Shown: positions 5,341 to 29,725, counted from the first letter of the stretch. The stretch is DNA of 64,000 bases from an uncultured Nitrososphaeraceae archaeon (GCA_963825865.1 CAWGVG010000015.1:32001-96000), one strand, 5' to 3'. The notes: generated from the letters alone by a model not told the origin. Translations and numbers: made by a program.

Positions 5341-5447
5341 TCACCCCAACACCAACAAGATGGATAATAGAAATCAGTCTCTTGGCTACTGGCTTATTAT
5401 TATTAAAGCAGGCATTCATTTGCTTTAATTCTGCTTTTTCCAGCCAA

Positions 5448-5496
5448 TTGGTCAATCAATCATAACAGTTGGTCAACTTTGAATGTTAGTTGGTCA
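5448..5496. repeat. Three TTGGTCA motifs at exact 21-bp spacing upstream of the integrase
   Basis: TTGGTCA at 5448, 5469 and 5490. Confidence 0.75.
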
Positions 5497-5616
5497 GGAG
5501 CTAGATAGCCGTAAGTAATTAATTATAACCTTTTACGTATCATTATCAATAGTTATGTATACTTTCAGGAAACATTATTAACCTATCCTTTATATGCAAA
5601 GGAAGGATCACAACAT

Positions 5617-7148
5617 ATGCAAAAAATAAAAAATACAGCTATAACAGCAGCAGCATCAACATCAAAGGTTAAAGATCTTGAAATAGAAAAAGAAATAGAA
5701 AACAGGAAGATTGCTTTAGCAACTGAAGGTTTTACTTCTAACATACACAGCTATGGTGCAGCCCTGTTAAAAGATAGATCCCGGTTATCCAGAGAGAATG
5801 CATTGACGATATGTGATTATATAATTGCAATGAAAAGGGAAATTAATCCCCGACTTAACACTATAAGGACTACAATTCAATTTCTGTCAGAACTGTCTAA
5901 GACTGTTGGAATAGATAAGAAGTTTAATGATATGATGGCAACAAATGAAGACATTTTACTATATTTAGACAGTTGCAGAAAACCAGAGAATGATGATCCT
6001 CTTCACAAATGGATTGGGACTTTTAACACAAAACGTATTATTTTATTTAGGTTCTTCAGATGGCTGCAGTATCCTGATGTTGCAAATCCTGATAAAAGAA
6101 ATGAGTTATCTGCAGCAGAAAGGAAACCTGAATGCATAATGGATATTCCAAAGCTAAAAAGAAAAGAAGTTAGTTGTTACAAACCTTCAGATATTTGGAC
6201 ACAGGAAGACGATTTACTATTTTTGAAATGGGTTACAAGCAAACGTGATAGATGCTATCATACAATGTCTAGAGACCTGTCAGCACGTCCTCACGAGATT
6301 TTAAACCTGAAAATAAAAGATGTTGTATTCAAAACTGTAGACACAAAGCAATATGCAGAAGTCCTAGTTAATGGTAAGACTGGGAGCAGGCATATCCCAT
6401 TAATACAATCCATTCCATACATCAAGGATTGGTTATCAAATCACCCAAGCAGGAATAACCCAAAGTCTCCTCTTTTTGTAAGTGTGGGTAAGAGAAGTAT
6501 GGGTAGAAAACAACTTACACGTATGGGATTATACAAGATATATAATGACTATAAACATGTATTTTTTCCCAAGTTATTAGAGATCCAACTATATCAAATG
6601 AAGATAAGGAGAATATCAAAGCCTTACTTGCAAAGCCATTTAACCCATACATAAGAAGACATTCAGCATTAACAGAGAAATCAACTAAACTAAAATCCAG
6701 TATATTGAACCAGCATGCAGGTTGGACCATGAATAGCAGTATGGCACAAAAATATCTGCATTATTATGGTAACGAATCAAGTGAATCATTATTAGAAGCA
6801 TACGGCATTGTTACAAAAGACAATATCCCAATTGACAGATTAAACCCCAAGATATGCCATAACTGTAACGAAGGTAATACTGCAGATAGTAAATTCTGTT
6901 CAAAATGTAAAATGATAATGAGCTATGAAGGATATCAGGAAGTACTAGAATCACAGAAGCAGAAGGAAGACGAATTAAAGACAATCAAAGACCAGCAAGC
7001 AGTAATGAATGACATGCTTACAAAGTTAGTTACAGGTCTATCTAATACTACCGATCAAAACCACCTTAACACACTAGCTCAATCATTAGCTGCATCAGGA
7101 ATATTGAAACCTAAGACGATTAATAATGATAAGGATAAAGAAAGGTAA
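5617..7148 (+). CDS. Tyrosine recombinase/integrase with C-terminal Zn ribbon; indel near 6580
   Basis: Catalytic motifs SARPHE, GKTG, PYIRRHSALT, QHAGW, QKYLHY; CHNC...CSKC ribbon followed by a coiled coil. Confidence 0.9.
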
Positions 7149-7160
7149 TCAAAATACAGA

Positions 7161-7191
7161 ATAAACGTGTGGGAATTCCAACACGATTTAT
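7161..7191. promoter_or_regulatory. Near-perfect 31-bp palindrome just after the integrase stop (operator or terminator)
   Basis: ATAAACGTGTGGGAATTCCAACACGATTTAT. Confidence 0.45.
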
Positions 7192-7393
7192 CTATACTCT
7201 TATTCTATTATTTATACTAAGTGCATATATGCATCTTTTCTGAAAATAATGTTACCAAATATAAGTAACATATGTATATGTTACATTTTTCCCTATTTTT
7301 TCACTATCTTGAATGTATTAAATAATATCACCACTATCTATTACTTCGAATGTGCCAAAGTGCTTAAGTTAACTATAGTCGAATGTAGGATGA

Positions 7394-7564
7394 ATGTCTT
7401 CAAATACATTACAAGTATTGAAAGCACCAAAACAAAAGACGAAAAGAATTGTAGTAAGTGAAATCAACTACAACAAACTGGCCGAGCAAGGAAAAGTTAA
7501 CGAGACGTTTAACGATGTGATCACACGGATTCTAACATCTCAAAAAGACCAAAGAGGAGACTGA
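7394..7564 (+). CDS. Small ribbon-helix-helix (CopG/antitoxin-like) DNA-binding protein, 56 aa, not in the ORF track
   Basis: MSSNTLQVLKAPKQKTKRIVVSEINYNKLAEQGKVNETFNDVITRILTSQKDQRGD; strand-helix-turn-helix pattern typical of archaeal RHH proteins. Confidence 0.7.
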   Translation: MSSNTLQVLKAPKQKTKRIVVSEINYNKLAEQGKVNETFNDVITRILTSQKDQRGD

Positions 7565-7610
7565 GTGAGTAACGTGACAAAATTATTTCTAGGAGCTGAA
7601 AGAAAAAGAA

Positions 7611-7929: not shown

Positions 7930-8226
7930 ATGATTAATAATTATTCAGAGGAAGGCAAAAATAAACTTTCTGTTGATTCTACTAATTTTGGACCTGTTAG
8001 ATTAGCCCGACAGGGAGGAGGAGCAGGAGATCCAAGTAATGACAGGATAACAACTTGTAATATTTGCAGAAACAATGGATTTCCACATGAAGCAATAGAG
8101 TTTGAAAAGGTGAACGGTCGAGTTTTGTCAGATGGAACACACGAAGTCGCATCATGGAAACTGAGGGACTATTTCACAGGTCGAAAGCACGAGCATAGAC
8201 AAAAAGAAATGGAGTTTGATGAATAA
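7930..8226 (+). CDS. Small Zn-binding hypothetical protein coupled to the MCM gene
   Basis: CNIC...HEH; ends 3 bp before the MCM start. Confidence 0.65.
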   Translation: MINNYSEEGKNKLSVDSTNFGPVRLARQGGGAGDPSNDRITTCNICRNNGFPHEAIEFEKVNGRVLSDGTHEVASWKLRDYFTGRKHEHRQKEMEFDE

Positions 8227-8229: not shown

Positions 8230-10727
8230 ATGGTAGCAGAAGCAGATTTCCATGATTTTGAAGTTCCTCAAAAACTAAAGGAGCAGAATGTAAAAAGAAT
8301 AGCAAAAGAAGGATCTACAATTCTGGTTCAAATGGATGGTAAAACAGTAAGGTTCGATATTGAACGTGATAAATGTCAAAAGACAATGACAAACTTTGAG
8401 AAGCAGTTAAAATTACTGGGAATAATCAATAAGGATTTCTTAAAAGAGCAAGTCATACTAATCTTAAGTGAACATTGGCCAAATATTATGAATGGTAAAT
8501 CTTCTGGTGGTAATGGTCATCAAGGACAGCAACAGCAGGATCAGGAGAAGCAACAACAACAAGAAGAAGAAGAAAATGGAATACCTGCTAAAGAGGTGTC
8601 CATATCTGAAGCATTACGAATGCATTCGGGTTATGTCAAAGTTAAGGACGGTATGATTTCAGGTTCTAGAAAATTGGAGAAGATGTCAGTTAATACGTTT
8701 TTTGTATGTGATTCATGTAAAATGATAAACAAAATAAGCACTTATTCACGTCCAAAATTTGCATTTGAAATAAATAAGTTAGAACATTCTAATAATACTA
8801 GAAAATGTGCCAACTGTTCTGTAAACACTATACCTACTGAGTATGATAACGATGTAAGAAATGCCATAAAAATAGAATTACAGGATGTAAAGACTTTTAG
8901 TGATTTAGAAAGACTACCAGCAGTACTTTTTGACGACTGTACTATTAACGTTGGTGTTGGTGAACAGGTTGCAGTTACAGGTCGAATTTATAAAATAAGA
9001 ATGAATAACAGTATGGTCCCATTCTTATTTGTAGATACGATTGAATATGAAAATAGAGAAGAGCTGTCTGAAGAACCTACTGATGAAGACATTTTAAAAA
9101 TCAAATCTATAATAAGTAAGGCCAGAGAGGAAAAAATTAGCCCAATTGATATACTGGTTAAAATGTTTGCTTCAACTATTATTGGATATGAATTTGTAAA
9201 GAAAGGATTACTTATCTGTGCTGCAAATACAGGTAAGGATTCTGTAGATAAAAGGCTTAGAATTAATGCATTACTAATTGGAGAAACAGGACTTGACAAA
9301 TCACCATTACTCAGGGCAGTAACCAAATTAGCAGCAAAAAGTAGGTATTGTTCAGCATTAAATTCTTCGATTAGAAGTCTTATTGGTATTGTAGAAAAGG
9401 AAGATGATAATCTTATGTTACGTTTAGGTCCAGTTACCTCTTCTAGTGGTGCTATCTGTGCCATTGACGAAATAGGCCGAATGCAATATGAGGATCAAGG
9501 ACAATTACTGAATGCATTACAAGAAGGTAAAATACCATTTGCCAAACATGGGTTTAACACAGTATTGGATGGTTCTGCTACTTATATCATGTCTGCAAAT
9601 CCAACCCACGACGGCACTTGGAGATATGAGAATAAGATAGAACGTGATGAAATACCTTTGCTGGGACCGTTCCTTGATAGAAATGATTTAGTATTTATAT
9701 TTAGGACTAACCGAATTAAATCAGAAATAATAAAATATGCATTTGATAAGGCCGATATATCAGAAGCAACTTATGCAGAGGAAGAAAAGAATCTTAAATT
9801 ACTAAGAACGTTAACATTCTATATTGTAAAAGGTTCAAACCTTCTTTATCTCATGAAGCTAAAAATATACTTATCCAGTTTTATGCTAGTGTAGCAACAC
9901 ATACAGGTTCTCCTAGATTATTTGATACAATCAGAAATATAGCATATGCTATTGCTAGGTTGAAACAAAAAGATATTATCGAAGTAGAAGATGCTAGTGA
10001 TGCTGTACAATTCTATAATGTTATACTACAACAGTTAGAGGAGATAGTTGTAGTAACAAAAGATCCTAGAGAGTTGGTAATAGAAGAAATCATAAAGATT
10101 CTGAATGGTTCAAAATACCAATTTGAATTTATCGAATTAATGAGAGACGTCTGTAATAGAAATGAGTTTGTTTCTAGATATTTTGGTAATGATTTCCATG
10201 TAGATACTAATAAAAAACTAAGAATGCTTCGAGATAGATTTGTCAAAGGAGGAGTAGATAATAGAATATTGATAGTTAGTTTATCACCATTGGTGTTAGC
10301 TTGGAAGTCTTCTTATGATAGTGATGATAAGGCTAAGGCTAAGGCTAAGGATGATAGTAAGACTGATATCCTAACTGACCAAACTGACCAAACTGACCAA
10401 ACTGACCTACCACTTTTTGACAGATCCCACGAAAATAATGTTATATCCGATGATAATAGTTCTAGTAAAATTGATAGTAATATCCACGATACTGATAAAA
10501 ATGACGATAATAATGATGACCCCTTGAAAAAAGCTCAGGTCAGTCAGGTCAGTCAGGTCAGTCAGACAGGCACTTCAGAAAATACGACTAGTAGAAAGTT
10601 CAAGTGTTTTTACTGTGACTTTTATCTAAGCAATGACGATGAACGTGTAAATCACATAAAGTCAGATCATAACGGCAAACTATCATGGCCGACTCAAGAG
10701 GACTTTAAGAATCGGATGGAGAGATGA
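8230..10727 (+). CDS. MCM-family replicative helicase of mobile-element type with a C-terminal C2H2 finger; indel near 9810
   Basis: Zn finger CDSC..CANC, Walker A GETGLDKS, Walker B CAIDEIGRM, sensor SANP, Arg finger LDRND, sensor-2 SPRLFD in the shifted frame, tail KFKCFYCD..H...H. Confidence 0.9.
10373..10569. repeat. Inverted arrays of 9-bp repeats inside the MCM 3' region (putative origin)
   Basis: (AACTGACCA)x4 at 10373-10407 and (TCAGGTCAG)x3 plus a partial copy at 10535-10569. The cores ACTGACC and GGTCAGT are reverse complements, with an AT-rich spacer between. Confidence 0.8.
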
Positions 10728-11778
10728 TGAATCTAGACGATGGATTAGATTTTATCCTCTCCCATTTTCCAAAAGATACACTATGGCCTAGGAAGATATC
10801 CACAAAGGCAACCGATAACCACCAAAGGTTAGTTTATAGTAAAGAGGAAGCACTTGCATGGTTTAAACTGCGTAACTATCTGGATTGCAGGATTAGTGCT
10901 TATCCACCCGTTGATGCTAGTCCTACTCACCATCGATCTTATTATAATAATGATAGACTTGGACCAGTCTAGGTTCAAGTCACGTCTAGCATTAGACAGA
11001 GCATTAGCTAGGACTTTAGATAAGATCAAAGATACATTTGATCTAGTAGTAGAAGAAAAAGAACAACCAGTGTACTGTATTATGGAACCGGAAACGGTTA
11101 TCATATCTATATCCCAATTGAGTCAAGATATGACTAGAAAGAAGGTCAGAGTTTACCAGATATACACAGGAACCATCTAAACACTTCCTACGGTTTGCAG
11201 AGCAATACCTATCAAATGGAAAAGCCGATCCTGAGCATTACAAAACTGTGTCATTTAAGAACTGCATGCTAAGGGTTCCGGGATTTATTAATTCGAAATG
11301 TGGTCAGCAGGTTAGAATTGTAAACAGATGGAATAATAACAATAACAGCAGAGCACCAATATTTTTACTTCTTGGCAGTTTTCTAGCCTACCTAGTAGAT
11401 CAAAATTCATCTAGTAGACGAATGTCATCAACATCAACATCATATACTAATAATAATAATAATAATAATAAAATCACTTGGATAGAATCACTTTTACAAT
11501 CACCGATATTATTATCAGATGGTAGAAAATACTGTTTATGGAGAATATTAGCACCCTATCTTATCAACATAAGAAGGTTGTCATATGAGCAATCATTTAA
11601 CATTATAATAGAATGGTTAGACAAGTGCAACCAGATAGAGAGAAGATTAGACTTTAACCCAAAGACAAAGCTAAAGGAAACACTTGCAAATGTAGGAAGT
11701 TATTACCCGATTAGCCTAGAGAAGTTAAAGCAAGACAATAATGAATTGTATCAAAAAATGATAGTGGAGCAAAGATAA
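10724..11778 (+). CDS. Archaeo-eukaryotic primase fused to a PriX-like C-terminal domain; several indels
   Basis: DCRISAYP, IMIDLD, TGNGYHIY (shifted frame), SFKNCMLRVPG, DGRKYCLWRILAPYLINIR; overlaps the MCM stop. Confidence 0.75.
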
Positions 11779-11788
11779 AAATAAAAAA

Positions 11789-11980
11789 ATGTCAGAATAT
11801 CTATGGACCGGTGAAAGTGCTTTCTGTCATTGTGGTCATCATATCAAGGATCATACGACTTGGAATTTTATACTAGATCCTGTGTTTGTCTGCAATGGTG
11901 AGGATCACGAAGGTTTACGTAGATGCAACTGCAAGGGATTCGTACCGTATAAAGTAATAGAGGAAGAAAAAGAAGGATAA
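11789..11980 (+). CDS. Small Cys/His-rich protein
   Basis: CHCGH..H...C...CNC. Confidence 0.55.
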   Translation: MSEYLWTGESAFCHCGHHIKDHTTWNFILDPVFVCNGEDHEGLRRCNCKGFVPYKVIEEEKEG

Positions 11981-11989
11981 GTAAGTTAC

Positions 11990-12217
11990 TCACTTATGGC
12001 CTATAGGTATATGATAGTAATACTCATCCAAATACTCAGAAATCTGGGTCATCATCCAATGAGCTAACTCACTATCGTCAGAACGTGGTAAACGATCAGC
12101 ATCGTCATCAAGTGGTTTTCTACCCTCTATACAGCCCAATGCTCCAAATATCATGTAAAGTTCTGATTTTGATATACCTGTAATATCAAATTTATTTTCA
12201 TGTTTGCTAATTTTCAT
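11990..12217 (-). CDS. Hypothetical protein
   Basis: 75-aa ORF with an ATG start. Confidence 0.5.
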   Translation of the reverse strand: MKISKHENKFDITGISKSELYMIFGALGCIEGRKPLDDDADRLPRSDDSELAHWMMTQISEYLDEYYYHIPIGHK

Positions 12218-12223
12218 AGCTGT

Positions 12224-12259
12224 TCACTCACTCACTCACTCACTCACTCATTCACTCAT
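12224..12259. repeat. (TCAC)n microsatellite
   Basis: About 9 TCAC/TCAT units between two minus-strand genes. Confidence 0.8.
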
Positions 12260-12292
12260 TTTCTTCTTTCTTTCTTTCATACCATTCAATCA

Positions 12293-12613
12293 TTATATAG
12301 GATGTCCGGGATAATGATCAGAATCTGCTCTTATCTTAAATCCAATATTATGCTCATCACAGACCTGTATGACATGTCTCATATCTTCTATATCGAGGCT
12401 GTCATATGGCTGTGATATATATTCAGTTTTTCCTTGCTTTGTTTTTCTTGTTTCAAAATGATTTAAATAATTATGATACTCTAACAATGTAACTTTGACT
12501 TTTCCATAGCCAGCATCTACTTCTCTACACAACCATCTTGGAACCTTTCTGCCTACTACTGCTGTCATTTCTTTGATTTCCCTATAAATTCCTTCAATGC
12601 TTGAACTACGCAA
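12293..12613 (-). CDS. Hypothetical protein
   Basis: 106-aa ORF. Confidence 0.5.
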   Translation of the reverse strand: MRSSSIEGIYREIKEMTAVVGRKVPRWLCREVDAGYGKVKVTLLEYHNYLNHFETRKTKQGKTEYISQPYDSLDIEDMRHVIQVCDEHNIGFKIRADSDHYPGHPI

Positions 12614-12993
12614 GCCATGAAATGAAAACAGAAAGAATACCTTAGTTTTTTTCCTTATATATCTATATTTTTATATAAATATATAATACTTCTAATTAGA
12701 GTATTTTATCAATATATAATATGACTAGTAATACTACTACTACTATTACAACAGCATCAAGTAATAATAATAAAGATAAAGATAAAGAAGAGGAAAAGAT
12801 CATTGTGTTTTGTAAACAGAGTAGAGATTGATATGGCAATCTATCAAAAAAGCATGAAGATGTGTACTATAAAGAAACATATGATAGAGAGACAGGGAAA
12901 CCATGCTTTGAAAGAGTATATCTAAAGAATAATAATAATAAAACAAACTAATAAGTTAGTCCGTGCTACCATAGTAATACTAGTTAGTTAATT

Positions 12994-13608
12994 ATGTCGT
13001 CAACAACAATACCAGCATCAGTATTATCCACACTAACAGAGGAAGAACAAAAGAAATATCAAGAGAGATTAGCTGATAAAAGTAAGCCGTATTATTATGG
13101 ATATGATATCGAAAAAGATGCAAATGTAATTGTATATCCAGTCTCGAATGTCGATGAAGGTAAATCAATTACTCTTGATATAGCAAGAGGCAGAGGATTA
13201 CAGCTATATCCAAAAAGGAATATTCAGATAATGAACAAAATAAGAGGCATGGTAGTTGGAATGGGAGGATGTGGTCCTATAGATTCGATCCCCGGTGGTA
13301 TAAAGCAGCTTACAGAAGCTAATAGTGATGAGTTTACTATTAACTACATACTTGAAGACTTAGAAAAAGAAAAGAAGGTAGTCAAGGTATATGATTACAA
13401 GTTAGTTGGACCAGCATGGAATACACCAGACTGGGAGAAACCTCATAGAGAGTATGATCCTATTAAATTCAAATGGTATACGATAGAAAAAGCTGAAGTT
13501 GATGGTGTCCTTGAGATAAAGTGCAGGTATTGTAGTAAAAAGTTTCCTTCAGAACATGACATGAAAAAGCATTTCAACAATAGCCATACCCCACGACGTA
13601 GGGTATAG
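12994..13608 (+). CDS. Module gene A, copy 1: hypothetical protein with a C-terminal C2H2 finger
   Basis: CRYCSKKF...HFNNSH; paralogous to 21735-22205. Confidence 0.8.
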   Translation: MSSTTIPASVLSTLTEEEQKKYQERLADKSKPYYYGYDIEKDANVIVYPVSNVDEGKSITLDIARGRGLQLYPKRNIQIMNKIRGMVVGMGGCGPIDSIPGGIKQLTEANSDEFTINYILEDLEKEKKVVKVYDYKLVGPAWNTPDWEKPHREYDPIKFKWYTIEKAEVDGVLEIKCRYCSKKFPSEHDMKKHFNNSHTPRRRV

Positions 13609-13700
13609 TAGTAGTAGTATTATTAGTAGTGCTACTACTATCAGAGCATAAAGAATAAAGCTTTCCTTCATCATTATATAATTTGAGATAATAATCAAAA

Positions 13701-14173
13701 ATGATTGATAGTAATAATATGGCTGAAATGATGAAGGACATCTCAATTTATAATTTGGACCCATATAGGAAGATGGTGAAAAATACTAAAACCGGAGCAT
13801 ACATTATTTGCAATAATTCAACTAATGAAGTGGAAAGTAAAGGAGTGATAAATCCTAATCCTAATCCTCCTCCTGCTCCTGCCTTGAGTACCAGCATCAA
13901 AAAGGTTCTGAGCAAAATAATATTGTTGATAACAGCTTTGCTCTAGAGATGTATGGACTAGTGAATCTATGTTCGGGTAAAACAAGTACTTATGAAGATA
14001 TTCAAACTAACTATATGTCTGCTTATCCTTCTTCTCATCAACAACGTCAATATTTGAAGGGTTCACATCAGCAACAGAGAAATAATAACGTCAATAATAA
14101 TATACTGGCAATAGAGCTGTACGAACAGCTTGTTAACCAGTTTATCGGAGGAGGTAATCATAATGGCTGGTAA
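13701..14173 (+). CDS. Module gene B, copy 1; indels
   Basis: ORFs 13701-13946 and 13949-14173 together align with the 141-aa ORF at 22308-22733. Confidence 0.75.
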
Positions 14174-14309
14174 GAAATATAGTAAAAATATCAAACCAAA
14201 AACAGCACCGGGCTTGGAATCGAGTCATGGTCCTTTATCTGCTGACTCTTCGGTAAGTGGTAATCCAACTGTATTAGCTCCTAATAGAAAATCTAAGAAA
14301 GCAAAGTAA
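14163..14309 (+). CDS. Module gene C, copy 1: 48-aa basic peptide, not in the ORF track
   Basis: MAGKKYSKNIKPKTAPGLESSHGPLSADSSVSGNPTVLAPNRKSKKAK; conserved paralog at 22723. Confidence 0.7.
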   Translation: MAGKKYSKNIKPKTAPGLESSHGPLSADSSVSGNPTVLAPNRKSKKAK

Positions 14310-14463
14310 GTAAGGTAGTTAGTTAGCTCGTTAGCTAATAATATGCAAAAAAACGGCATAACTGAGCACAACCAGTTTACATGTACATTGTATATTGTCT
14401 ATAAGATAATATAAGATAATGTATAATATATAATATATTTATGATTGATTATTTATAATATAT

Positions 14464-14599
14464 AATAGTAATAGCTGGATGATAGTATGAGCAAAGCTAC
14501 AACTAAAACACACTTTATTATTATTGTATTATTTCATTAAAAATAGTAATAGCTGGTTAATTGTGTGAGTAAATCTACTAATAAAACACACTTTATTAT
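14464..14599. repeat. Imperfect ~58-bp direct repeat with a 78-bp period
   Basis: AATAGTAATAGCTGG...TAAAACACACTTTATTAT at 14464 and 14542. Confidence 0.75.
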
Positions 14600-14690
14600 C
14601 CAACTATCGTAGATTAGCATTTTCTGACATGTTCTGATAGGGTTGGACCATATTTTAAGCCAAAATATAACATATAATAATAATAATATA

Positions 14691-14786: not shown

Positions 14787-14829
14787 TTAATGATGATAAC
14801 AAGAGAGTATAATTATAACTTGCCTCTAA

Positions 14830-15933: not shown

Positions 15934-15985
15934 AGTAAACAAAGAAATAATTATTTCCCATTATTATATACACACATACACACAA

Positions 15986-17375: not shown

Positions 17376-17379
17376 CGAA

Positions 17380-20555: not shown

Positions 20556-20717
20556 GGGAGCAGCTTTTCGTGAAGCTACTTACTAGAACCAAAATAGGAC
20601 AACACAAAAACCATATACCATTTTATGCTGTCCTAGTCATGATTTAGAATGACAAAAGAGATTGTTATTTCAAACAATAAAAGCATTTTTGATTCTAGTG
20701 AGGTGTGTAAACTAAAA

Positions 20718-21624
20718 ATGACACCAACAGAAGTTATGAATGCTCAAACATTTGGATTTTCTGTCATAACTATAGCAATAGCAGTAGCATCTGCTATTGT
20801 AGGTATCTTGTCATTCCACTATAATAGTAAGATGAATAAACTAAACTCATTAGTAAAAGCCTTCGAGATTATTAAACGATAATGCTCATAGAAATGCTAG
20901 AATTAGGCTATATAGAGTAGCAAGAGCTTCCACACCATCACAGACAGGAAGCACACTTAAGATTGTTGGGTGTAGAAGACAAAGATCTAAGAACTATAGT
21001 CGGAGAATCTGAAAATATGGTATTGGCAGATTTTGATCAGATGGGAACTTTAGTTAAAAACAAACTTCTTCCTGTAAACGAATTTCTGAACGTTTATTGG
21101 AATACTATTATATCAACCTATGAAATAATATACACGAACGATAAAAGAGATTCTCTATAAGGATTTTGAATTTCTTATATGCTAAGGCTAAGAGCTCAGA
21201 GACGAAAAAGATCCAAATAAACAAATTCCATTGGAAAAAGAAATTTATCGTGTAAAGCTTTTCGGTACAGGTGCAATGTAACCAACAAATATCTATTGGA
21301 AAAACCCAAACTATTAGTGTAACAGTCAGTGACTCTTTTGAGGCAGTATATGGTTTTCCGTATGGCAGTGTTGGAAATGTGTATAATGCTGAAGTGTGTG
21401 TCAAAGTATCTGATAAGGAATCAGAAAGTTTGGTTATTTCATTAGATACACAAAAAACTGATGTACATGGTAATACTGAATTTCAAGTATCAATAACAGA
21501 TAGCTACTTCAAAGTTGGAAAGACGTATAATGTTAAAGCCTTTATATCAGCAAAAGGTTATCGAAATTCTGAATCAGGATATAAAGTATTTTTTACTGTT
21601 AACAACTCTCAGGACTATATCTAA
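20718..21624 (+). CDS. Membrane-anchored DUF4760-like protein, possibly fused to an Ig-like domain; indels
   Basis: N-terminal TM; VLADFDQMGTLVKNKLLP..FLNVYWNTII pattern; beta-rich ORF 21271-21624 follows. Confidence 0.45.
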
Positions 21625-21734
21625 TATATCTATATTTATATATACAGATAATACCACTATCATATGAAAAATAATATGACGACTGTCATTAGTAGTATAC
21701 GTACTAGTATTGATAAGGATGATAAGATTGCATC

Positions 21735-22205
21735 GTGTTTGCTAAAATTTGCAGAGACAGATACGGTCTTAATGAGGCAAGAGGAAGAGGACTACAGCTA
21801 TATCCAAAGAGAAACGTCCACATAATGAACAAGATTAGAAGCATGGTAGTTGGAATGGGTGGGAGTGGTCCTATAGATTCTATCCCCGGTGGTATAAAGC
21901 AATTTACAGAAGCTAATAGTGACGAATTCACCTGTAATTATATTCTTGAAGATCTGGAGAAGGAAGGAAGTGTAGTAAAAGTATATCCTGTTATTAAGAC
22001 TGGTCCCGGTGATCCAAGAGATAATAGCTATTTTGGTCATCCTGTAAAGGAATATTCAAAGACTGGTTACAAGTGGTATACTCTACAACGAGCTGAAGCC
22101 GATGGTGTTCTTGAGTTACGTTGTCGGTATTGTTCTAAAGTATTCAAGACTGATAAGGAAAGGACTAAGCATTTCAACAATAGCCATACCCCACGTAGGG
22201 TATAG
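21735..22205 (+). CDS. Module gene A, copy 2
   Basis: ARGRGLQLYPKRN...CRYCSK...HFNNSHTPRRV, near-identical to 12994-13608. Confidence 0.8.
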   Translation: MFAKICRDRYGLNEARGRGLQLYPKRNVHIMNKIRSMVVGMGGSGPIDSIPGGIKQFTEANSDEFTCNYILEDLEKEGSVVKVYPVIKTGPGDPRDNSYFGHPVKEYSKTGYKWYTLQRAEADGVLELRCRYCSKVFKTDKERTKHFNNSHTPRRV

Positions 22206-22300
22206 TAGTATTATTAGTAGTAGTAGTACTGCTGCTGATATCATAGCATAAAAGATAAAACAAACTATCTTCATTATATAATTTGAGATAATAATCAAAA

Positions 22301-22733
22301 ATGATCGTTGGCAGATATCTTGAAAAATATAAGTGTGCAAGATCTAGGGGAAGGAAGGAAGATGGTGAAGCACACGAACGGCAGTTATATAATATGCAAT
22401 GGGAACCAGATCGAGCAAAGAGGTTTTGTAAATCCTGATCCTCCTGCTGCTACTCAGTACCAACAACAGCAACATCAATTGCAAAAAGCTACAATTCAAC
22501 GTAATAATAGCAATGCCCTAGAGATGTATGGATTAGTAAATAAGATAACTGGTAGATCGGACATTTACGATAATATTGAAACTATGACTACTGCTGCTTA
22601 CCCTCATCAAGGTCAATATCTAAAAGCATCAGAACAGCAACAAAGAAGTAATAATAATAATAGAAATGCAATCGAGATGTATGAAATGATTCAAAGCTTG
22701 TTCGGAGGAGGTAATAACATCAATGGCTGGTAG
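22301..22733 (+). CDS. Module gene B, copy 2
   Basis: 141-aa ORF from 22308. The ATG at 22301 lies in the conserved promoter context, implying an indel. Confidence 0.75.
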
Positions 22734-22866
22734 TAATAAGAAGAAGTATAATATCAAACCCAAAACAGCACCGGGCTTGAATGCAAGTCACTCCCCTTTA
22801 AGTGCCGATTCTATAGGTGGTAATCCTACAACTATAAATCCACGAAAAGCCAAGAAACCAAAGTAA
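22723..22866 (+). CDS. Module gene C, copy 2: 47-aa basic peptide, not in the ORF track
   Basis: MAGSNKKKYNIKPKTAPGLNASHSPLSADSIGGNPTTINPRKAKKPK. Confidence 0.7.
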   Translation: MAGSNKKKYNIKPKTAPGLNASHSPLSADSIGGNPTTINPRKAKKPK

Positions 22867-23356
22867 AAAGTTAGTTAGTTAGCTCGTGTATTATATAATT
22901 ATATAATAATAATAATAATTATAATATGATATCAACAAGAACGAAAAAACAGGATAAAGATAAACAAAATAATAAAGAAGCTATTGTTATAGCAGCAATG
23001 CGAGCAAAAGAAATTATGGGAAAAATACTTTTCTACCGACAATCCTATGATTAAATTTGAATGCTTGAGTAAGCTCCACGATCTCACATTAGACTTAGTA
23101 AACCTACAATATAGTGCTTACATGCAGAATTATAATTTTGATCATATCAAGAAATCTTCATCACCATTGAAGAGAGGTTATAAGCTTTCTAATTCACCTA
23201 ATACTAGGATGATACTAAGCAGGTTTATCAATAATAATGATGAGGATCTTCGATAACTATTAACACTATTCGTGTTAATAATAGCACGATTTATCAACAC
23301 TTTTAGCTACTAATATCATAATAGTAATAATAATAACGACAGAAGGAAGAAAGAAA

Positions 23357-23905
23357 ATGTCAAAGCTAACAAAAGAGCAACGTGAGGAACTAAAACATCT
23401 GGTACTAAATGGTATTGTCCATCATTTTACAATGTCTGAAATCCAGCAGTATATACTACAGAGCAAGCTAAAGACACAAATCAGTATTGACTATATCAAG
23501 CATCTGAAACTAGAATTAAAAAAGGATTCAAAGAAAGAATTAGATTATCTAGCTAAAGACAGATTTGCTTATACCCATTCTATATTCTTTGAACGACTTG
23601 AAGAGCTAAAATCATATCAAAGGACTCTGCATAATATAGTTTTGAACAATCAAGATAAACCAGAAGCACAGGTTAAGGCAATATCTGAGTTGAAGGATAT
23701 CACATTAGAGATTGTAAACTTGTATCAAATGTTACCTGTTATAGTAAGCAATCCTGGAGTACATGTAACTACTGTAGTAGATGATAATAATATTAATATT
23801 AATAATAATAATAATTACTCTACAAGAACAACAACAGCAACAATAAAACAACATCCAGACGGCTGCAACTGTACTGAGTGCTATGATCCAGAAGCAAAAT
23901 TCTAA
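23357..23905 (+). CDS. HTH plus helical-hairpin protein with terminase-small-subunit-like architecture and a Cys-rich tail
   Basis: N-terminal HTH-like FTMSEIQQYI..ISIDYI, long amphipathic helices, HPDGCNCTEC tail. The TerS assignment is inference. Confidence 0.5.
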   Translation: MSKLTKEQREELKHLVLNGIVHHFTMSEIQQYILQSKLKTQISIDYIKHLKLELKKDSKKELDYLAKDRFAYTHSIFFERLEELKSYQRTLHNIVLNNQDKPEAQVKAISELKDITLEIVNLYQMLPVIVSNPGVHVTTVVDDNNININNNNNYSTRTTTATIKQHPDGCNCTECYDPEAKF

Positions 23906-23923
23906 CAGCAAGAATAAAAGGAG

Positions 23924-23952
23924 ATACAGTATAAAAGGGGATTATACTGTAT
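23924..23952. terminator. Perfect 11-7-11 palindrome at the CRISPR trailer end (terminator and/or recombinase core site)
   Basis: ATACAGTATAA-AAGGGGA-TTATACTGTAT, between a converging gene and the array. Confidence 0.7.
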
Positions 23953-23956
23953 TTTT

Positions 23957-24316
23957 ATGTCAATCCTACCATAGTTCGATTCAAACAAGGCTCAAACGTG
24001 CCTGGTACTGCTGACTTATATCCCTTTCAATCCTACCATAGTTCGATTCAAACGTTCCTATCTGTACTAGTCCCTGGTGTTCCTGCTTCCTTTCAATCCT
24101 ACCATAGTTCGATTCAAACTCTTTTTTGTAAATAATCTGGGAAACCTGTTATTTCCTTTCAATCCTACCATAGTTCGATTCAAACATAACAGCAGATATT
24201 CTAAACGTTCATTATGCTTTCTTTCAATCCTACCATAGTTCGATTCAAACTTTCTGCTGTTGTAATGCCTGCTCCTGTTCTATGATCTTTCAATCCTACC
24301 ATAGTTCGATTCAAAC
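23957..24316 (-). CRISPR. CRISPR mini-array: 6 repeats of 30 bp, 5 spacers of 35-37 bp, no cas genes in the window
   Basis: Repeats at 23957 (degenerate terminal copy, ATGT for CTTT), 24024, 24090, 24156, 24221 and 24287. On the minus strand the repeat reads GTTTGAATCGAACTATGGTAGGATTGAAAG, with an ATTGAAAG handle. Confidence 0.97.
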
Positions 24317-24460
24317 TCCCTACTAATACATCCTAAATACACCCTTTATCTATAAACTTTCAGGGTCAACCTCCGATAATGCATTCTCTTTATAAATGCT
24401 AACCATTTTCAGAGGCATAATAAAAATTATATAATGAAGGAGGATTTAAAAAGTCTACAC
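24317..24460 (-). promoter_or_regulatory. CRISPR leader with an archaeal BRE-TATA promoter
   Basis: Minus-strand GAAAGTTTATAGA at 24361-24349, ending 32 bp before the first repeat, on the side opposite the degenerate repeat. Confidence 0.7.
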
Positions 24461-24485
24461 CTCTTAATGCTGGATTGAGGTTAAG

Positions 24486-24779
24486 ATGTCATCTCCAACC
24501 CCTAATCTAATCGAATGGCCAGCCCTTTACCTTATTGCCCAAGTTATAGGGTTTATAGTAGCAATAATAGTGATATTAAAAGTTACACATGATATTACCA
24601 AGAAGCTTACCAGTATAGAAAAAGATGTTGAATATCTCAAAAATACCGTAGAAAAACATACAGAAAAACTAGAAGAATTCACGTATACATATAAGGCAGA
24701 CATATTAGTCAGGCAAGCTCTAGATAAAGCTGAAGAAAAGAAAAAGAAAGAAAGAGAAGGAGAAAAGAAGAAAGAATGA
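24486..24779 (+). CDS. TM plus coiled-coil hypothetical protein
   Basis: One TM then a heptad pattern; ATGA overlap with the next gene. Confidence 0.7.
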   Translation: MSSPTPNLIEWPALYLIAQVIGFIVAIIVILKVTHDITKKLTSIEKDVEYLKNTVEKHTEKLEEFTYTYKADILVRQALDKAEEKKKKEREGEKKKE

Positions 24780-25039
24780 GCAGTATTCCAATAGACTACA
24801 GTAATGAGAAGATGGATTATTTAATGAAGAAGATGTATCTTCATATGCTGACAAAAGAGGAAGCAAGGGAACTTATGCTATTGGTAGAAAAGGAAAAACA
24901 AAAAGCAGTAAAGTATGATGACAAGGAATACCAAGAAATTTTGTCTGGTTTACTGGACTCATTGAAGATGTATATGGCAGGAAAAATTAATCTTTATGAG
25001 AGCAGTATTGTTGATAGGTTGAAAGTTTCAAACGTCTAG
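24776..25039 (+). CDS. Helical hypothetical protein
   Basis: 87-aa ORF, translationally coupled to the previous gene. Confidence 0.7.
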   Translation: MSSIPIDYSNEKMDYLMKKMYLHMLTKEEARELMLLVEKEKQKAVKYDDKEYQEILSGLLDSLKMYMAGKINLYESSIVDRLKVSNV

Positions 25040-25152
25040 TAATCGGTTATCATTAATGTATATCATGTTTATCATCAAGCAATCCATTATCACCGAGAAA
25101 CAAAGAAAAAGAAATAATTAATTATTACTTGTCTCTATTATTGTGATTCGAA

Positions 25153-25458
25153 ATGACAAATAATAATAATAATAATAATAATATAATAATCGTCGATGTT
25201 ACAGTTGCAGACAACCAGATTCGAGCATTGAAACCAAAAGATGAATATCAAACTATGTTAATGCCAAATACTGATACTGAAAAATTATTATGGTGGAATT
25301 CTGTAGATCCAGGTAGGCTTAACAATCGTCTCTATGGCACCTTGAAAGGCCAAGCATTGAAGAAAGCACAGAAATTAGTTGATTCTCAAGGATCAATTTC
25401 TACGAGTGGAGAATATGGCAGTATAGAAATTTCAGAAGAAGATTTTATTCCACTTTAA
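25153..25458 (+). CDS. Hypothetical protein
   Basis: 101-aa ORF. Confidence 0.55.
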   Translation: MTNNNNNNNNIIIVDVTVADNQIRALKPKDEYQTMLMPNTDTEKLLWWNSVDPGRLNNRLYGTLKGQALKKAQKLVDSQGSISTSGEYGSIEISEEDFIPL

Positions 25459-25639
25459 AGTAAAAAATAAAGAATAAGAAAAATATAATATAATATAATA
25501 TAATGTCTAAATAAAATATCAATCAAAGTATAATTATAACTTGCCTCTCAAAGTATAATTATAATTTACACCATATAGGATAAACGTAAATCAATCAGTC
25601 TTTTGCTTCAAAATATAGAGGGGGTTATACTGTATTTTT

Positions 25640-25780
25640 ATGTCAATCCTACCATAGTTCGATTCAAACTAATTAGTGCACTTACCTCTACATTCAAGAC
25701 ATCTGACTTTCAATCCTACAATAGTTCCATTCAAACGTTTGAGTCAGCCCTAATGCTATTTCTATATGTAATTCCTTTCA
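25640..25780 (-). CRISPR. Second, leaderless CRISPR remnant: 2 repeats, a 6-nt repeat stub and 2 spacers
   Basis: Repeat 25640-25669 (same degenerate terminal repeat), 37-bp spacer, repeat 25707-25736 (2 mismatches), 38-bp spacer, CTTTCA stub at 25775. Confidence 0.9.
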
Positions 25781-25828
25781 CTTGATAAACAAAGAAATAA
25801 TTCCTTATTACTATTATAGCCTAGAGGA

Positions 25829-26752
25829 ATGAGCCATATTACTGAAGAACCGTTTTCAAACGAACTTTTCTCTGCAAGGGTACTTCCAACTCTTTTACTG
25901 ATTGTTATGCCATTTGCTTGGGGAATAATATTGCCATATCTTTTTCCAATTTTTCATTTTCACCAGAGCATAGTTATACCAACAATAGGCAAGCACCCAG
26001 TAGTTCCATTCGATTATCTTACTATTGTCATTGTCTTTCCTCCGGGACTTCTTTTTTTCATGTTTTATTATCATTATCGTTTAGCCTTTGCTGACAACTA
26101 TTTTGAAAAAAGAGGTTACCAAATTGCAATTAACGAATATGATTACATAAATAAAGTTCTATATATTGAAGTTGTGCTAATAATTATCTTAACACTTCTT
26201 TTTTATACTCTTCCTCCATCCATGAAAGAAGGCTATTTATCTCCATTACTAGGAGATGGATTTTATTTCCTACAGGCAACATTAATTATTACTGTATACA
26301 ACACGTTCTTTACTTTGAGCTTTTCATATGGTCAAAGAGATTTTAGATTTGAATTTGCAAAAGCCTGTATGAATGTCATTGAAAATAAGAAAGATGAAGT
26401 TAATAAAATCTATTACTTAATGCTAGGATTAGACTCATACAACAAATTCCTCAAAAGAAATATAAAACTTCAGTTTGATGATACAATGGTTTGTTCAAAA
26501 ATAATCTCATCATCTGAGAAAAATCAATCACTTAATTTGATAACTGCATCCTTTAAAGATAATGATAAATTAAAACCAGTTAGTTGCCTATCTAATATTA
26601 TAAAACTTCCTGATAAGGGACAATTTTTGGTAAAAAAACCATTAAAGGGTAAGATAAAAGATGCTGTAACAATTCTAACGGCTATAATTCCTATAGTAAT
26701 TTCGATACTTCAGTTGATGTTTCCAAAATATTTTCAAATGCTACTCAAGTAA
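25829..26752 (+). CDS. Multi-pass membrane protein
   Basis: About 5 hydrophobic helices, 307 aa, intact. Confidence 0.75.
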   Translation: MSHITEEPFSNELFSARVLPTLLLIVMPFAWGIILPYLFPIFHFHQSIVIPTIGKHPVVPFDYLTIVIVFPPGLLFFMFYYHYRLAFADNYFEKRGYQIAINEYDYINKVLYIEVVLIIILTLLFYTLPPSMKEGYLSPLLGDGFYFLQATLIITVYNTFFTLSFSYGQRDFRFEFAKACMNVIENKKDEVNKIYYLMLGLDSYNKFLKRNIKLQFDDTMVCSKIISSSEKNQSLNLITASFKDNDKLKPVSCLSNIIKLPDKGQFLVKKPLKGKIKDAVTILTAIIPIVISILQLMFPKYFQMLLK

Positions 26753-26901
26753 GCAAAAATAATTATGCTTGGAATATTTTTAACTACCCTCTTATGCAGG
26801 TATAGCCAAATTATACAAGGACCGATTAATTATATAATAAGAAAGGTATACTAAAAAATAAAAACAAGTAAACAAAGAAATAATTATTTCCTTGTTGCTA
26901 T

Positions 26902-27094
26902 TATACAGCTAAGAAGGAATGAATGAGGGAAAACAAATAACAACAAGAAGTTGACTTGCTGAACATCTTCATTTTACTCTATCAGGATAATAATAGTAAT
27001 ATGATAGTAGAGTAATGGTAATCAGCTCATTATTATATTATTATTGTTATCCTGTTCCTTCATTCCTTCCTTCCTTTCTATTTCTATTATTTAC
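26902..27094 (+). repeat. Structured dispersed repeat, copy 3
   Basis: Outer stem GAAGGAATGAA (26913) / TTCATTCCTTC (27059); inner 26-bp stem spanning 26983-27054. Confidence 0.85.
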
Positions 27095-27207
27095 TATCAT
27101 ACATTGAAGATGCTTAGGTTATGCACAATATATTCAAAAATTTCCAATCATCAATAGCTTCTACTTGATCACTTTTAACTGACAAATTCATTGTTTCACT
27201 GAGTAAT

Positions 27208-28927
27208 TTGGCAACCTCAGCAGCATGCCAGTATAAAAATGAATTTTATGTTGACTTTACATGTGACCAACCCACCAGAGACACAGAAAGCAAATTCTGT
27301 ATATTTCATGATACAAATTATCTTAAAGACGATAACTATGATAAACACAAGGAAGAAGTAACAAAGAGATTTGAAGATAAACTATCAGAATATTCTTCCA
27401 AAAACATGCCTTTGAAATTTATAGGCTATTGTTTGCCAGAGATTTCATTTAAAGATGAGAAATTTAGTGAAGAGATTCACTTTAATGAAGCCACGTTTTC
27501 TGGAGTAGCAAACTTTGATGGAGCTACATTCTCCAAAAAAGCTCACTTTGATGGAGCTAAATTCTCCGAAGAAGCATACTTTAGTTATGCTACATTCTCC
27601 AAACCAGCTCACTTTTCTGGAGCTAAATTCTCCGAAGAAGCAAACTTTTCTGTAACCAAATTCTACGAAGAAGCAAACTTTTCTGTAACCAAATTCTACG
27701 AAGAAGCAAACTTTTCTGGAGCTACATTCTCCAAACATGCATACTTTTATAGAGCTACATTCTCCAAACGAGCAGACTTTTATGGAGCTACATTCTCCAA
27801 ACCAGCAGACTTTTCTGGAGCTACATTCTCCATAGCCGAGTTTGAAAAGGTCAGGTTCGTAGAGATAGCCAACTTTGATGAAGCTGAATTCAAGGTAGCA
27901 GAATTCACTGAAGTTACATTTTCTAAAGAAGCTAATTTCATTTATGCTAAATTTTCAAACTTAGATTTTTCTCACACTAAATTCTTAAATGAAGTTCGTT
28001 TTTCAGAAGAAAAAAAAATAAAAATTTTTGATGGTGAAACTTTATTCAGATACACAATTTTTGAGCAGCCCAACAAGGCTATATTTGATACAAATGATTT
28101 ATCCAGGGTATCATTTGCTGGTAGTGACATATCTAAGGTAACTTTTACAGATAAAGTAAGGTGGGGTGGAGATGACGGTCTGAAGGTGATTGAAGAAGAA
28201 TGGTTAGAAAAATTAGGAAAGGAAAAGAAGCTAGAAAGTGAACACGAACAAGAAAATGAAATCAAACGAATAAGCTTGGACCTTGTATTATATGTATATC
28301 GTAGGTTAAGAGAGAACTATGAGTTCAAACTCAAATTTGACGAAGCAGGTAAATTCTTTATAAAAGAAATGGAATTAAAAAGAAAGTACAGAGAAGCTCC
28401 TTCACTATCTGCTGTTTTCAAACGTAAATTAATTAAATTCCTTAAGAAATTAAAACTTGTAAATGCTAATGTACAAGAGCCAAAGATTGAATATGTTCTT
28501 AAACAAAATGGAAGACTCAGAAGACATTTCTCGTTAACTGGTTTGTATTATCATCTTTCTACTTATGGTGAAAGCATAGTTAAACCAACTATAATTGGTG
28601 CAATAACGGTTGGACTTTCAACATTGTTTTGGCTACTTCAAAATAATCCAACAGTCGAACCTTCTATTTCTTTTATTGCTAATAATAAATTACATATGGC
28701 TAAAACAGACTTCTGATTTCATTAATGCTACTCAGATTTGGAACAATACACATACATTGAAGGCTTTTGAAAGAAGTCTTGCAGATTTTCTCCCTTTGCT
28801 TTCATTACCAGGTGATATCAAAGTAGGAGTAATAGATTATGTTATCAAAATAGTAGGTGGTGCTCTTACTTTCGGTCTTCTTCTAATAGCTTTGAGAAGG
28901 AAATTTGAAAGAAAATATACACGTTAA
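27208..28927 (+). CDS. Pentapeptide-repeat protein with C-terminal membrane segments; indel near 28700
   Basis: A(N/D)FSGATFS repeats including an exact 30-bp duplication; N-terminal FCIFH; YGES..P and ALRRKFERK in the TM region. Confidence 0.85.
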
Positions 28928-29018
28928 TTACAGCCTATGCAACAATATTTAGTTTAATCAATTTCTCTATTTTAATAATTATTCAAAAGACTTGGTTCGT
29001 TGAGATCAATCATGAAGC

Positions 29019-29258
29019 TTATTCATCCTTATCAGCTAAATCAGTAGTAGTACTGGTAGTATTAGATTTATTACTATTACCGGATTTAGATTTCTTCTTC
29101 TTCTTATCCTTCTGTATATATGGAATGTCAGTCAGAGTATTTGAGATATTATCCCGGCATGTAATAGCCTTGTGGCTTGTGTCAATGCTATACATAAGAT
29201 CCATCAATGGTTCAGTATCTTTATTTCTGTCTAGGTCTTCAATTGACTTTCTTGCCAT
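29019..29258 (-). CDS. Hypothetical protein
   Basis: 79-aa ORF with an ATG start. Confidence 0.4.
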   Translation of the reverse strand: MARKSIEDLDRNKDTEPLMDLMYSIDTSHKAITCRDNISNTLTDIPYIQKDKKKKKSKSGNSNKSNTTSTTTDLADKDE

Positions 29259-29314
29259 GTTGTTATTATTATAATATTATAATAGGACACTTTTATTATT
29301 ATAGATATATAATC

Positions 29315-29533
29315 ATGACAGCAGCAGAAGTAGAGCCACAGGAAGAAGAAGAAGGACCGTTATTTACTAATTCATATGATCTACTAAATACAATATTGGA
29401 TGACGTAAATACTCTAGAGCATAAATGTAATAACACCAAGACAATCGGTGATGTTGTAATGTTTTGGAACAAGTCAAAATTAGATTTATTTAAAATATCA
29501 ACCGAATTGGAATTGCTGAAAGTGTATTTATAA
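29315..29533 (+). CDS. Hypothetical protein
   Basis: MTAAEVEPQEEEEGPLF..., 72 aa, divergent from the previous ORF. Confidence 0.45.
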   Translation: MTAAEVEPQEEEEGPLFTNSYDLLNTILDDVNTLEHKCNNTKTIGDVVMFWNKSKLDLFKISTELELLKVYL

Positions 29534-29725
29534 GAAGGAAGATAAGTCAGGTCTTTGAAGAAAATATAATTTTATAATATTTATAATAATTATATAAAAA
29601 TCATATAATTAAATTATATAAAAATTATATTCTTGGAATATTAGTGATTTTAGTACTAAAGATAACTTCTTTAGTAGCAGTAATAACATAATGTTTCCTA
29701 TAGGCTTACATATTCAATAGATATG

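Follow-up and report, generated by a model that had tools for sequence, protein, structure and literature searches.

Integrated mobile elements of ammonia-oxidizing archaea are already known, and a few of them carry CRISPR loci. In bacteria, phage-inducible chromosomal islands (PICI) such as the Staphylococcus aureus pathogenicity islands (SaPI) combine an integrase gene at one end with a small regulator, a primase/helicase replication module, and a gene encoding the small terminase subunit (TerS), without genes encoding the large subunit (TerL) or the capsid. The mini-arrays of Sulfolobales viruses, a subject associated with Medvedeva et al. and the year 2019, reportedly hold spacers that match related viruses, and their hosts are said to have active Cas systems. 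In this study, we analyzed a 64,000-nt stretch of DNA (the window) from an uncultured Nitrososphaeraceae archaeon (GCA_963825865.1 CAWGVG010000015.1:32001-96000, one strand, 5' to 3'), in which an island of 24,168 bp (window positions 5546-29713) carries two small CRISPR arrays.

The closest described elements are the cryptic integrated elements (CIE) of thaumarchaea, which carry an integrase and MCM or a primpol-helicase and have a median size of 17 kb (Krupovic et al., 2019; PMC6563490). The text of that paper describes four thaumarchaeal integrated elements with arrays: two CIE with full suites of type I-B cas genes and two conjugative elements with long cas-less arrays, the hosts of which have a cognate I-B system. 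Its authors proposed that the cas-less Nitrosocaldus arrays arose by loss of cas genes (Krupovic et al., 2019). Beyond this paper, whose supplementary tables may list more, we found nothing in the literature on mini-arrays or orphan arrays in Nitrososphaeria elements.

We consider it probable that the island is a thaumarchaeal CIE with orphan arrays that would work only in trans. This reading overlaps with two others considered below, namely that the island is a phage satellite and that its arrays are in active use. The host assembly (G000) comprises 4.98 Mb in 62 contigs and is 81.8% complete by marker genes, with 2.8% contamination; it encodes an archaeal AmoA (E 5e-115), and the host is therefore an ammonia oxidizer.

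Borders and integration site of the island

The island lies between two convergent genes, htrA and leuS, and its borders, given as 5400-29700 in the preliminary description of the window, are refined here to 5546-29713. Contigs from four soil or rhizosphere metagenome runs were aligned to window positions 11000-30900 (the shares of words in the runs were all at most 0.09, and assembled contigs rather than reads were used). A 284-nt contig of run X3, with a depth of 4.1, matches positions 29714-29854 with one differing letter in 141 and has a 143-nt overhang before 29714, the last 30 letters of which are identical to positions 5516-5545, a 30-mer that occurs once in the host genome. The junction of 5545 with 29714 in this contig is the empty site, which a preliminary description of the window had named as the thing to look for. 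Several other contig joints inside the island, each with a short side, were judged unreliable.

A 13-nt core, TCAATAG(T/A)TATGT, is located at both ends of the island and occurs nowhere else in the 64 kb, even with one mismatch. The candidate left attachment (att) core, attL, is TCAATAGTTATGT (5546-5558, plus strand), located at the X3 contig junction, and the candidate attR core at the right end is TCAATAGATATGT (29714-29726, plus strand), 200 nt beyond the leuS stop codon. By motif alone the core is not significant, two matches being reached in 15 of 100 shuffles; its weight derives from its position exactly at the junction and 58 nt upstream of the integrase start codon, and it was recognized because the contig junction pointed to both ends. 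A long direct repeat was not found when the left flank, the right flank, and the internal repeat modules described below (J1-J3) were compared by exact words and short BLAST, and a MAFFT alignment of the two island ends was not in register. Between htrA and the left core, the heptamer TTGGTCA occurs three times within 60 nt (5440-5500) and could bind an integrase or a regulator.

The G+C content is 0.322 inside 5546-29713 compared to 0.358 in the rest of the window, and the open reading frames (ORFs) of the island lie mostly on the plus strand. Eight relatives of other genera, with LeuRS 61-76% identical, were fetched for the leuS locus, and in seven of them the 3' end of leuS adjoins a homolog of the small ORF 3310-3540 with no island in between, while the two are 26 kb apart in the window. 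The htrA-leuS synteny itself was not found in relatives, in which htrA, a member of a multi-copy family, is not adjacent to leuS.

Next to the left core lies a gene encoding a tyrosine integrase with a C-terminal Zn-ribbon tail (5617-7148, plus strand), read in two frames (5617-6654 and 6705-7148) that are split near 6555-6705. Its match to the Pfam family PF00589 (Phage_integrase, E 8e-4) is below the cut-off, and zinc-ribbon families match too. A paralog on contig C6 is unbroken in one frame, and the single break in the window copy is probably an assembly indel. At least 15 integrase paralogs, with 66-81% nucleotide identity, are present in the host genome; they are found on at least 15 contigs, for example at C14:136418-137707, C6:62790-64062, C46:4431-5698, C27:76847-77844, and C21:6065-7228. 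The 5-Mb host genome seems to be densely populated by related integrated elements. Downstream of the integrase gene, an ORF of 56 amino acids (7394-7564, plus strand) is a candidate for the ribbon-helix-helix (RHH) regulator announced in the preliminary description; the ORF is present, its match to PF02697 (VAPB_antitox, VapB antitoxin) being sub-threshold (E 0.002).

The preliminary description had treated the region as an integrated element, and the empty-site junction, the core at both ends, and the integrase bear this out. Discrete borders with an empty site and an encoded integrase are features expected of CIE, as is the lack of viral or conjugative hallmarks. When 39 island ORFs were scanned with Pfam or PHROGs (sequence families, with structures predicted for two ORFs), no cas, capsid, portal, or conjugation family and no structural family was matched, in agreement with the first reading of the sequence, although divergent capsid folds could have escaped these scans. 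The tyrosine integrase would have recombined the short core TCAATAG(T/A)TATGT within the htrA-leuS spacer. After excision, the element's own MCM and primase-like protein and/or its PrimPol-helicase would replicate it.

The quality of the assembly bears on whether the region is one element at all. When ORFs of at least 250 amino acids from six relatives' loci were matched against the host genome, 17 of the 45 gene-to-contig matches of conserved genes were broken across frames, and the assembly therefore has frequent indel errors, which probably also lower the estimate of its completeness. Genes split across frames in the window are htrA (at 5075-5098), leuS (at 32405-32452), and those encoding the integrase, MCM, and PrimPol. 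We rejected the island frameshifts as a sign of decay, since conserved genes are split at a similar rate; the PrimPol region, with at least five fragments in 2.5 kb, may be worse than the assembly average. The alternative that the region is plain variable chromosome, or mobile-element debris brought together in a chimeric assembly, would be consistent with this error-prone assembly, with the two replication modules, the duplicated block, and the three internal repeats found in the island, and with the fact that no same-genus relative was among the genomes compared. We regard such an origin as highly improbable, because the precise empty-site junction coincides with the shared 13-nt core beside the integrase gene, G+C drops inside the island, and indel errors account for the frameshifts without chimerism.

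CRISPR arrays and the supply of Cas proteins

Array 1 (23957-24316, minus strand) is composed of six 30-nt repeats and five spacers of 35-37 nt, with a degenerate last repeat at its low-coordinate end. Array 2 (25640-25736, minus strand) has two degenerate repeats, with one and two mismatches, a single spacer, and no intact leader, only a degenerate remnant of one. The two mini-arrays of the preliminary description are thus present, but their spacers total six and not the seven that it counted. The two share a degenerate terminal repeat and a 22-nt trailer, and arrays 1 and 2 are therefore copies of one ancestor.

The leader of array 1 (24317-24420, minus strand), found in the 100 nt to the right of the array, contains a TATA-like box and a conserved ATCGGAGGTTGACC motif, and reads GCATTTATAAA, a gap of 6-8 nt, and GCATTATCGGAGGTTGACCC. 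This is a canonical I-B leader with a promoter-like box; the preliminary description had noted an intact promoter for one array. The leader motif is common to the leaders of cas-adjacent I-B arrays in three genomes of relatives (G138, G078, and G003) and also occurs in four other leaders, those of G095, G107, G029, and, with a poorer match, G054. In G138, the repeat (one mismatch) comes after cas6, the large-subunit gene cas8b (without a family match), cas7, cas5, cas3, cas4, cas1, and cas2, an operon typed as I-B by NCBIfam. The repeat runs there in the direction GTTTGAAT...ATTGAAAG, and the window arrays are therefore read on the minus strand, with leaders at higher coordinates. The repeat and the leader in the island are those of arrays located next to a I-B cas operon. 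The arrays most likely descend from the family's mobile type I-B CRISPR-Cas loci, with which they share the 30-nt repeat and, in array 1, the leader and its promoter-like box.

Matching cas genes were found neither beside the arrays nor elsewhere in the host assembly beyond one cas6 fragment. There were no matches for Cas1, Cas6_C, DevR, RAMPs, Cas7, or TIGR01877, and a tblastn search of the host with eight Cas proteins of G138 retrieved only residues 7-75 of Cas6. These correspond to a pseudogene fragment at C18:51028-51234 (minus strand), which encodes 69 amino acids, is 64% identical to the I-B Cas6 of G138, and contains an internal stop codon. A simple k-mer screen for arrays of at least three repeats detected no other array in the host genome. 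Single or paired copies of the repeat are present in the host at C42:5026 and 5094, C44:35323, C46:55933, and C4:18873. The copy on C46 lies immediately after an MCM-like gene, and that on C4 is degenerate.

The repeat and the effector genes are also distributed differently in the family. With at most three mismatches, the repeat occurs in 49 of 201 family genomes and in 13 of 18 genera, whereas a I-B Cas7 match occurs in 12 of the 201 genomes, nine of which have both. Thus 40 of the 49 repeat-bearing genomes, the host included, have no I-B Cas7 match, many of them being incomplete assemblies. We examined nine small-array contexts of relatives (L051-L059). One genome (G014) has a cas1-cas2 remnant with two repeats, and another (G045; L054, C33:43000-62900) has MCM, a PriX-like gene, a C-terminal cas6 fragment, and a three-repeat array within 10 kb, an arrangement resembling an MCM-type element that has lost its cas genes partway. 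In the other contexts, MCM lies 6.5 kb away (G114), or an integrase lies 1 kb (G022) or 14 kb (G012) away, and four contexts (two in G077 and one each in G116 and G104) had no match with the probes used. Repeated loss of cas genes from mobile I-B loci would be expected to leave contexts of this kind.

The preliminary description had proposed that the element borrows host Cas, and had suggested a search of the host for cas6 or Cascade. The borrowing is not supported by the counts above or by that search, which yielded only the 69-amino-acid fragment. A minus-strand array transcript would be cut by Cas6 into CRISPR RNAs with the ATTGAAAG handle, a step that would require I-B Cas proteins to be provided in trans. 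Since no I-B Cas proteins are encoded in the host assembly, the arrays are most likely silent passengers in the present host, and any activity would depend on their moving to a Cas-bearing element or residing together with one.

Protospacers were not found in the host's own genome, in 237 family genomes (BLAST of 23987-25706, which would list near-perfect 36-mers), or in 50,697 phage records, and IMG/VR gave no match to a single 24-mer taken from the newest spacer. In mini-arrays of inter-element conflict, spacers target related or competing elements and the host supplies Cas, and cas genes are lacking in this host assembly.

Several observations weigh against the reading of the island as a CIE with arrays that are silent here. 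In array 1, all repeats but one of the six are identical and the leader is intact, a state more in keeping with recent use than with prolonged decay. In run X3, one contig runs through the trailer, two repeats, and oldest spacer at that end of array 1 and then on into 30 different letters; it hints at two lineages that shared their oldest spacer and then diverged, and so at ongoing spacer uptake somewhere in the population, weakly, as it is one contig. With 81.8% completeness of the assembly, there could be a cas operon in its missing part. Most island ORFs have no assigned function, a TerS gene without TerL (see below) would also be expected of a phage satellite, and the empty site depends on one low-depth assembled contig (4.1x) in which 30 of the 143 overhang letters are visible.

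An alternative is that the arrays are expressed and used now to keep out competing mobile elements, with Cas coming from a co-resident Cas-bearing element or from a host locus missing from the assembly. In addition to the canonical leader, the perfect repeats, and the X3 variant, this possibility is favored by soil runs X1 and X2, in which further arrays combine this repeat with different spacers, and by the cas-less arrays on integrative and conjugative elements (ICEs) of Nitrosocaldus, which are described as having the host's I-B repeat and diverged spacers (Krupovic et al., 2019; PMC6563490). It is opposed by the 4.98-Mb assembly without any cas gene but the cas6 pseudogene, by the rarity of I-B Cas7 relative to the repeat among the 201 family genomes, and by array 2, with its degenerate repeats and no intact leader. 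We therefore hold present use of the arrays to be possible but doubtful, and prefer orphan arrays that would function only in trans.

Terminase homolog, replication genes, and cargo

The ORF 23357-23905 (plus strand), located just before array 1, encodes a TerS homolog with a helix-turn-helix (HTH) motif and a long helical hairpin, assigned by gene neighborhood in relatives. It has no Pfam or PHROGs match and four database relatives. Its predicted model, with a predicted local distance difference test (pLDDT) score of 74, shows the HTH followed by the hairpin, and the top ten Foldseek rows against the PDB are TerS proteins of Thermus phages G20c and P74-26, with E-values of 0.19-0.57. VIA-align gave Z 8.2 with a root-mean-square deviation (rmsd) of 14.6 over 129 aligned residues, which is level with generic hairpins, and in the protein atlas the ORF fell among viral hypothetical clusters and DUF2280 at 0.91.

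The neighborhoods of its homologs are more informative. Among 238 family genomes, 48 contain a match to the profile of these homologs, and the host has ten such matches. In four foreign loci, the TerS homolog overlaps the start of an ORF of about 500 amino acids which, without a Pfam match, matches the terminase large subunit phrog_2 in PHROGs (E 7e-17 to 2e-24), and a TerL-like match lies within 1.5 kb of the TerS homolog in 7 of 29 foreign loci. As homologs are located directly upstream of TerL in relatives, the sequence comparisons assign the ORF to the small-terminase family, the window copy being without TerL, and the TerS-like gene of the preliminary description is upheld on neighborhood grounds. 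No relative of the protein was confirmed in JGI metagenome contigs, and IMG/VR had no match for it or for MCM. In one locus, L107 (G002:C111:2600-16923), the TerS homolog lies about 2 kb from a divergent cas6-cas5-cas3 cluster.

A TerS gene without its partner raises the possibility that the island is a PICI-like satellite of a head-tailed archaeal virus, in which TerS would redirect the TerL of a helper to package the 24-kb element and the arrays would target the helper or competitors. The gene content agrees with this, since an integrase, a small regulator, replication genes, and TerS are present without TerL, capsid, or portal genes, as do the homologs directly upstream of phrog_2 TerL and the many TerL-like genes in the host genome. 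No helper was identified, however. Around the host TerL genes on C4 and C59, a helicase and transposases were found but no recognizable capsid, portal, or complete provirus, and the ORFs upstream of these two genes are not of the island TerS family; the host TerL-like loci may be decayed proviruses or another kind of element. Moreover, 22 of the 29 foreign TerS-like loci also have no TerL within the flank, and when flanks as long as 10 kb were inspected at 14 TerL-less loci, there was one window-type integrase, no island replicase, and no TerL, so that the gene may have a wider DNA-binding role. The fold match is not significant (E at least 0.19; Z level with generic hairpins), and 24 kb exceeds the typical size of PICI. 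A satellite is therefore unlikely in our judgment.

A broader form of this idea is that the island is the first recognized PICI-like satellite in ammonia-oxidizing archaea, in which TerS, kept as the only packaging gene of a capsid-less island, would hijack the helper's packaging motor, the mini-array would gain spacers in trans and fire at the helper or at rivals when I-B Cas is present, and such elements would spread orphan arrays, as the 40 of 49 genomes without I-B Cas7 might reflect. We think it quite unlikely. A family of elements with the island layout, as supposed in the preliminary description, was also not recovered: repeats lie beside the TerS-like gene in the window locus only (1 of 30 loci, none of the 29 foreign ones), and the window-type integrase appeared in only 1 of the 14 long-flank loci. 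The abundance of TerL-like genes in the host is unusual, with near full-length copies at C4:29420-30946, C59:13063-14472, C48:52535-53989, C21:232191-233614, C62:200964-202104, and C3:225238-226437 and on C61, and fragments on more than 15 contigs.

Returning to the CIE reading, the island holds the two replication modules that had been noted from its sequence. The first comprises an MCM helicase (8230-10727, plus strand), read in two frames (8230-9894 and 9960-10727; PF00493, E 2.4e-29), and a primase-related protein with a PriX-like helical domain (10724-11778, plus strand; several frames; PF18689 PriX, E 9.3e-8 at 11248-11778). The MCM gene has a paralog at C62:186167-188376 with 83% nucleotide identity over 2.2 kb and is preceded by a small ORF (7930-8226, plus strand) without a family match, homologs of which adjoin MCM-like genes on C62 and C5; paralogs of the PriX-like protein are found on C7, C42, C54, C24, and C62. 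The second module is a PrimPol-helicase replicase (17353-19826, plus strand) in at least five frames (PF09250 Prim-Pol, E 5e-8 at 17353-17742). Its paralog at C46:8187-10610, better preserved yet frameshifted, continues into a part with a GAGKS P-loop, and the second replicase is therefore of the primpol-helicase type.

A gene block, which in its first copy encodes a protein with a C2H2-like zinc-finger tail and small ORFs, is also present twice (12994-14173 and the paralogous 21735-22733, both on the plus strand); at the nucleotide level, 1.2 kb at 13183-14331 is repeated at 21777-22887 with 68% identity. Three palindromic modules of about 200 nt, J1 (14840-15055), J2 (17199-17305, truncated, directly upstream of the PrimPol gene), and J3 (26913-27091), were defined by a three-way alignment, and each lies 100-150 nt upstream of a plus-strand gene. 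The modules contain nested inverted repeats and could represent a shared regulatory cassette, an origin, or a recombination site; the outer arms of J3, GAAGGAATGAATGAGGGAA and TTCCTTCATTCCTTCCTTC, are 89% complementary, and the inner arms measure 24-34 nt at 85-88%. No copy of these modules was found in the rest of the host genome or in 237 other family genomes. We rejected them as miniature inverted-repeat transposable elements, given that they have no copies in these genomes, and as att sites, since there is no att core within the island.

The recurring junction repeats of the preliminary description are thus real in their three copies, but they are nested palindromes unique to the island and not att sites, and the proposed stacking of elements at one site is not supported, the att core being present at the two outer ends only. 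Given the two replication modules, the duplicated block, and J modules without an att core, the island looks like one unit of integration, produced when two related elements recombined, and not like two elements integrated in tandem.

Among the remaining genes, the ORF 15196-15933 (plus strand) encodes a HEPN-like protein, a candidate RNase and possible defense or addiction cargo. It has 33 relatives, and the motif R163-x4-H168 is invariant in 18 aligned sequences. In a VIA-align search, independent of Foldseek, of 48,161 chains with its predicted model, the top eight matches were all HEPN-type, with Z 8.9-7.4 and 109-126 aligned residues (best match 2hsb_A: Z 8.9, rmsd 4.2, 123 aligned), Z scores that fall in the range where helical folds can match by chance. 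The protein has no Pfam or PADLOC match. Its sequence and model suggest a putative HEPN-like RNase, as in abortive-infection and toxin-antitoxin systems. PADLOC gave no match on ten island proteins, and PHROGs on 20 island proteins gave two spurious coiled-coil matches only.

A membrane protein (16299-17114, minus strand) and a multi-pass membrane protein (25829-26752, plus strand) are supported as ORFs only, the former without a family match and the latter with paralogs on C42 and C19. A pentapeptide-repeat protein with a membrane tail (27208-28716; PF13576, E 7e-37) and an overlapping small membrane ORF (28610-28927) occupy 27208-28927 on the plus strand, and both belong to multi-copy families of the host genome. 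Inside the pentapeptide-repeat gene, ten tandem 33-nt units with 82% matches were observed (27507-27832), and related repeat genes are located on C62, C12, and C53. Between the two arrays lie three small ORFs (24486-25458, plus strand), the first two of which have homologs in G026 with no repeats nearby. Outside the island, a tRNA-Ile (GAT) gene at 44631-44727 is 97 nt long and probably contains an intron.

Comparison with described elements

The island has the layout of bacterial PICI and SaPI, from an integrase at one end through to TerS without a TerL or capsid match. It differs from them in its archaeal host, its 24-kb size, its two replicases, and the absence of a known helper; its TerS is assigned from gene neighborhood, with weak fold evidence, and the island is known from sequence alone. 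With the mini-arrays of Sulfolobales viruses, which are said to be very short, leader-bearing, and located on mobile elements encoding no Cas, it shares these traits. For the island, in contrast, the searches above turned up neither a target nor host Cas, and the element that carries the arrays is not recognizable as a virus.

Like the CIE described in the text of Krupovic et al. (2019; PMC6563490), the island has a tyrosine integrase, an intergenic target, MCM and a primpol-helicase, an RHH-type protein candidate, and a host of the same archaeal class, and its 24 kb is near the reported median of 17 kb. Viral and conjugative hallmarks, which these CIE lack, had no Pfam or PHROGs match among the 39 island ORFs scanned. 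It differs in that the array-bearing CIE described there have complete I-B cas suites, whereas the island has arrays without cas genes, and in that it combines two replication modules with TerS but no TerL, while NitKor-E1 has both TerS and TerL (Krupovic et al., 2019). The Nitrosocaldus ICEs NCAV2-E1 and NitIsl-E1 resemble it in having stand-alone arrays on an integrated element with the repeat of the lineage's I-B system. According to the same text, their arrays hold 69-96 spacers, the elements are conjugative, and the host I-B system includes an adaptation module; the island has five spacers and one spacer in its two arrays, no conjugation gene was matched, and the host assembly has no cas gene beyond the cas6 fragment.

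It would be new for a cas-less array, small and equipped with a leader, to be carried by a non-conjugative element whose host appears to have no Cas at all, as would the occurrence of the same repeat in orphan mini-arrays across most genera of the family, where matching effector genes are rare. If such arrays work, mobile elements would distribute immune memory apart from the immune machinery; if they do not, the arrays are a record of the repeated decay of mobile type I-B systems. The TerS family, accompanied by TerL in some loci and alone in most, offers a handle on whether archaeal head-tailed viruses have satellites. The island is thus distinct from the array-bearing elements reported so far in the text cited above, as it unites small cas-less arrays, a non-conjugative element, and a host without detectable Cas with a TerS-only feature that recalls bacterial satellites.

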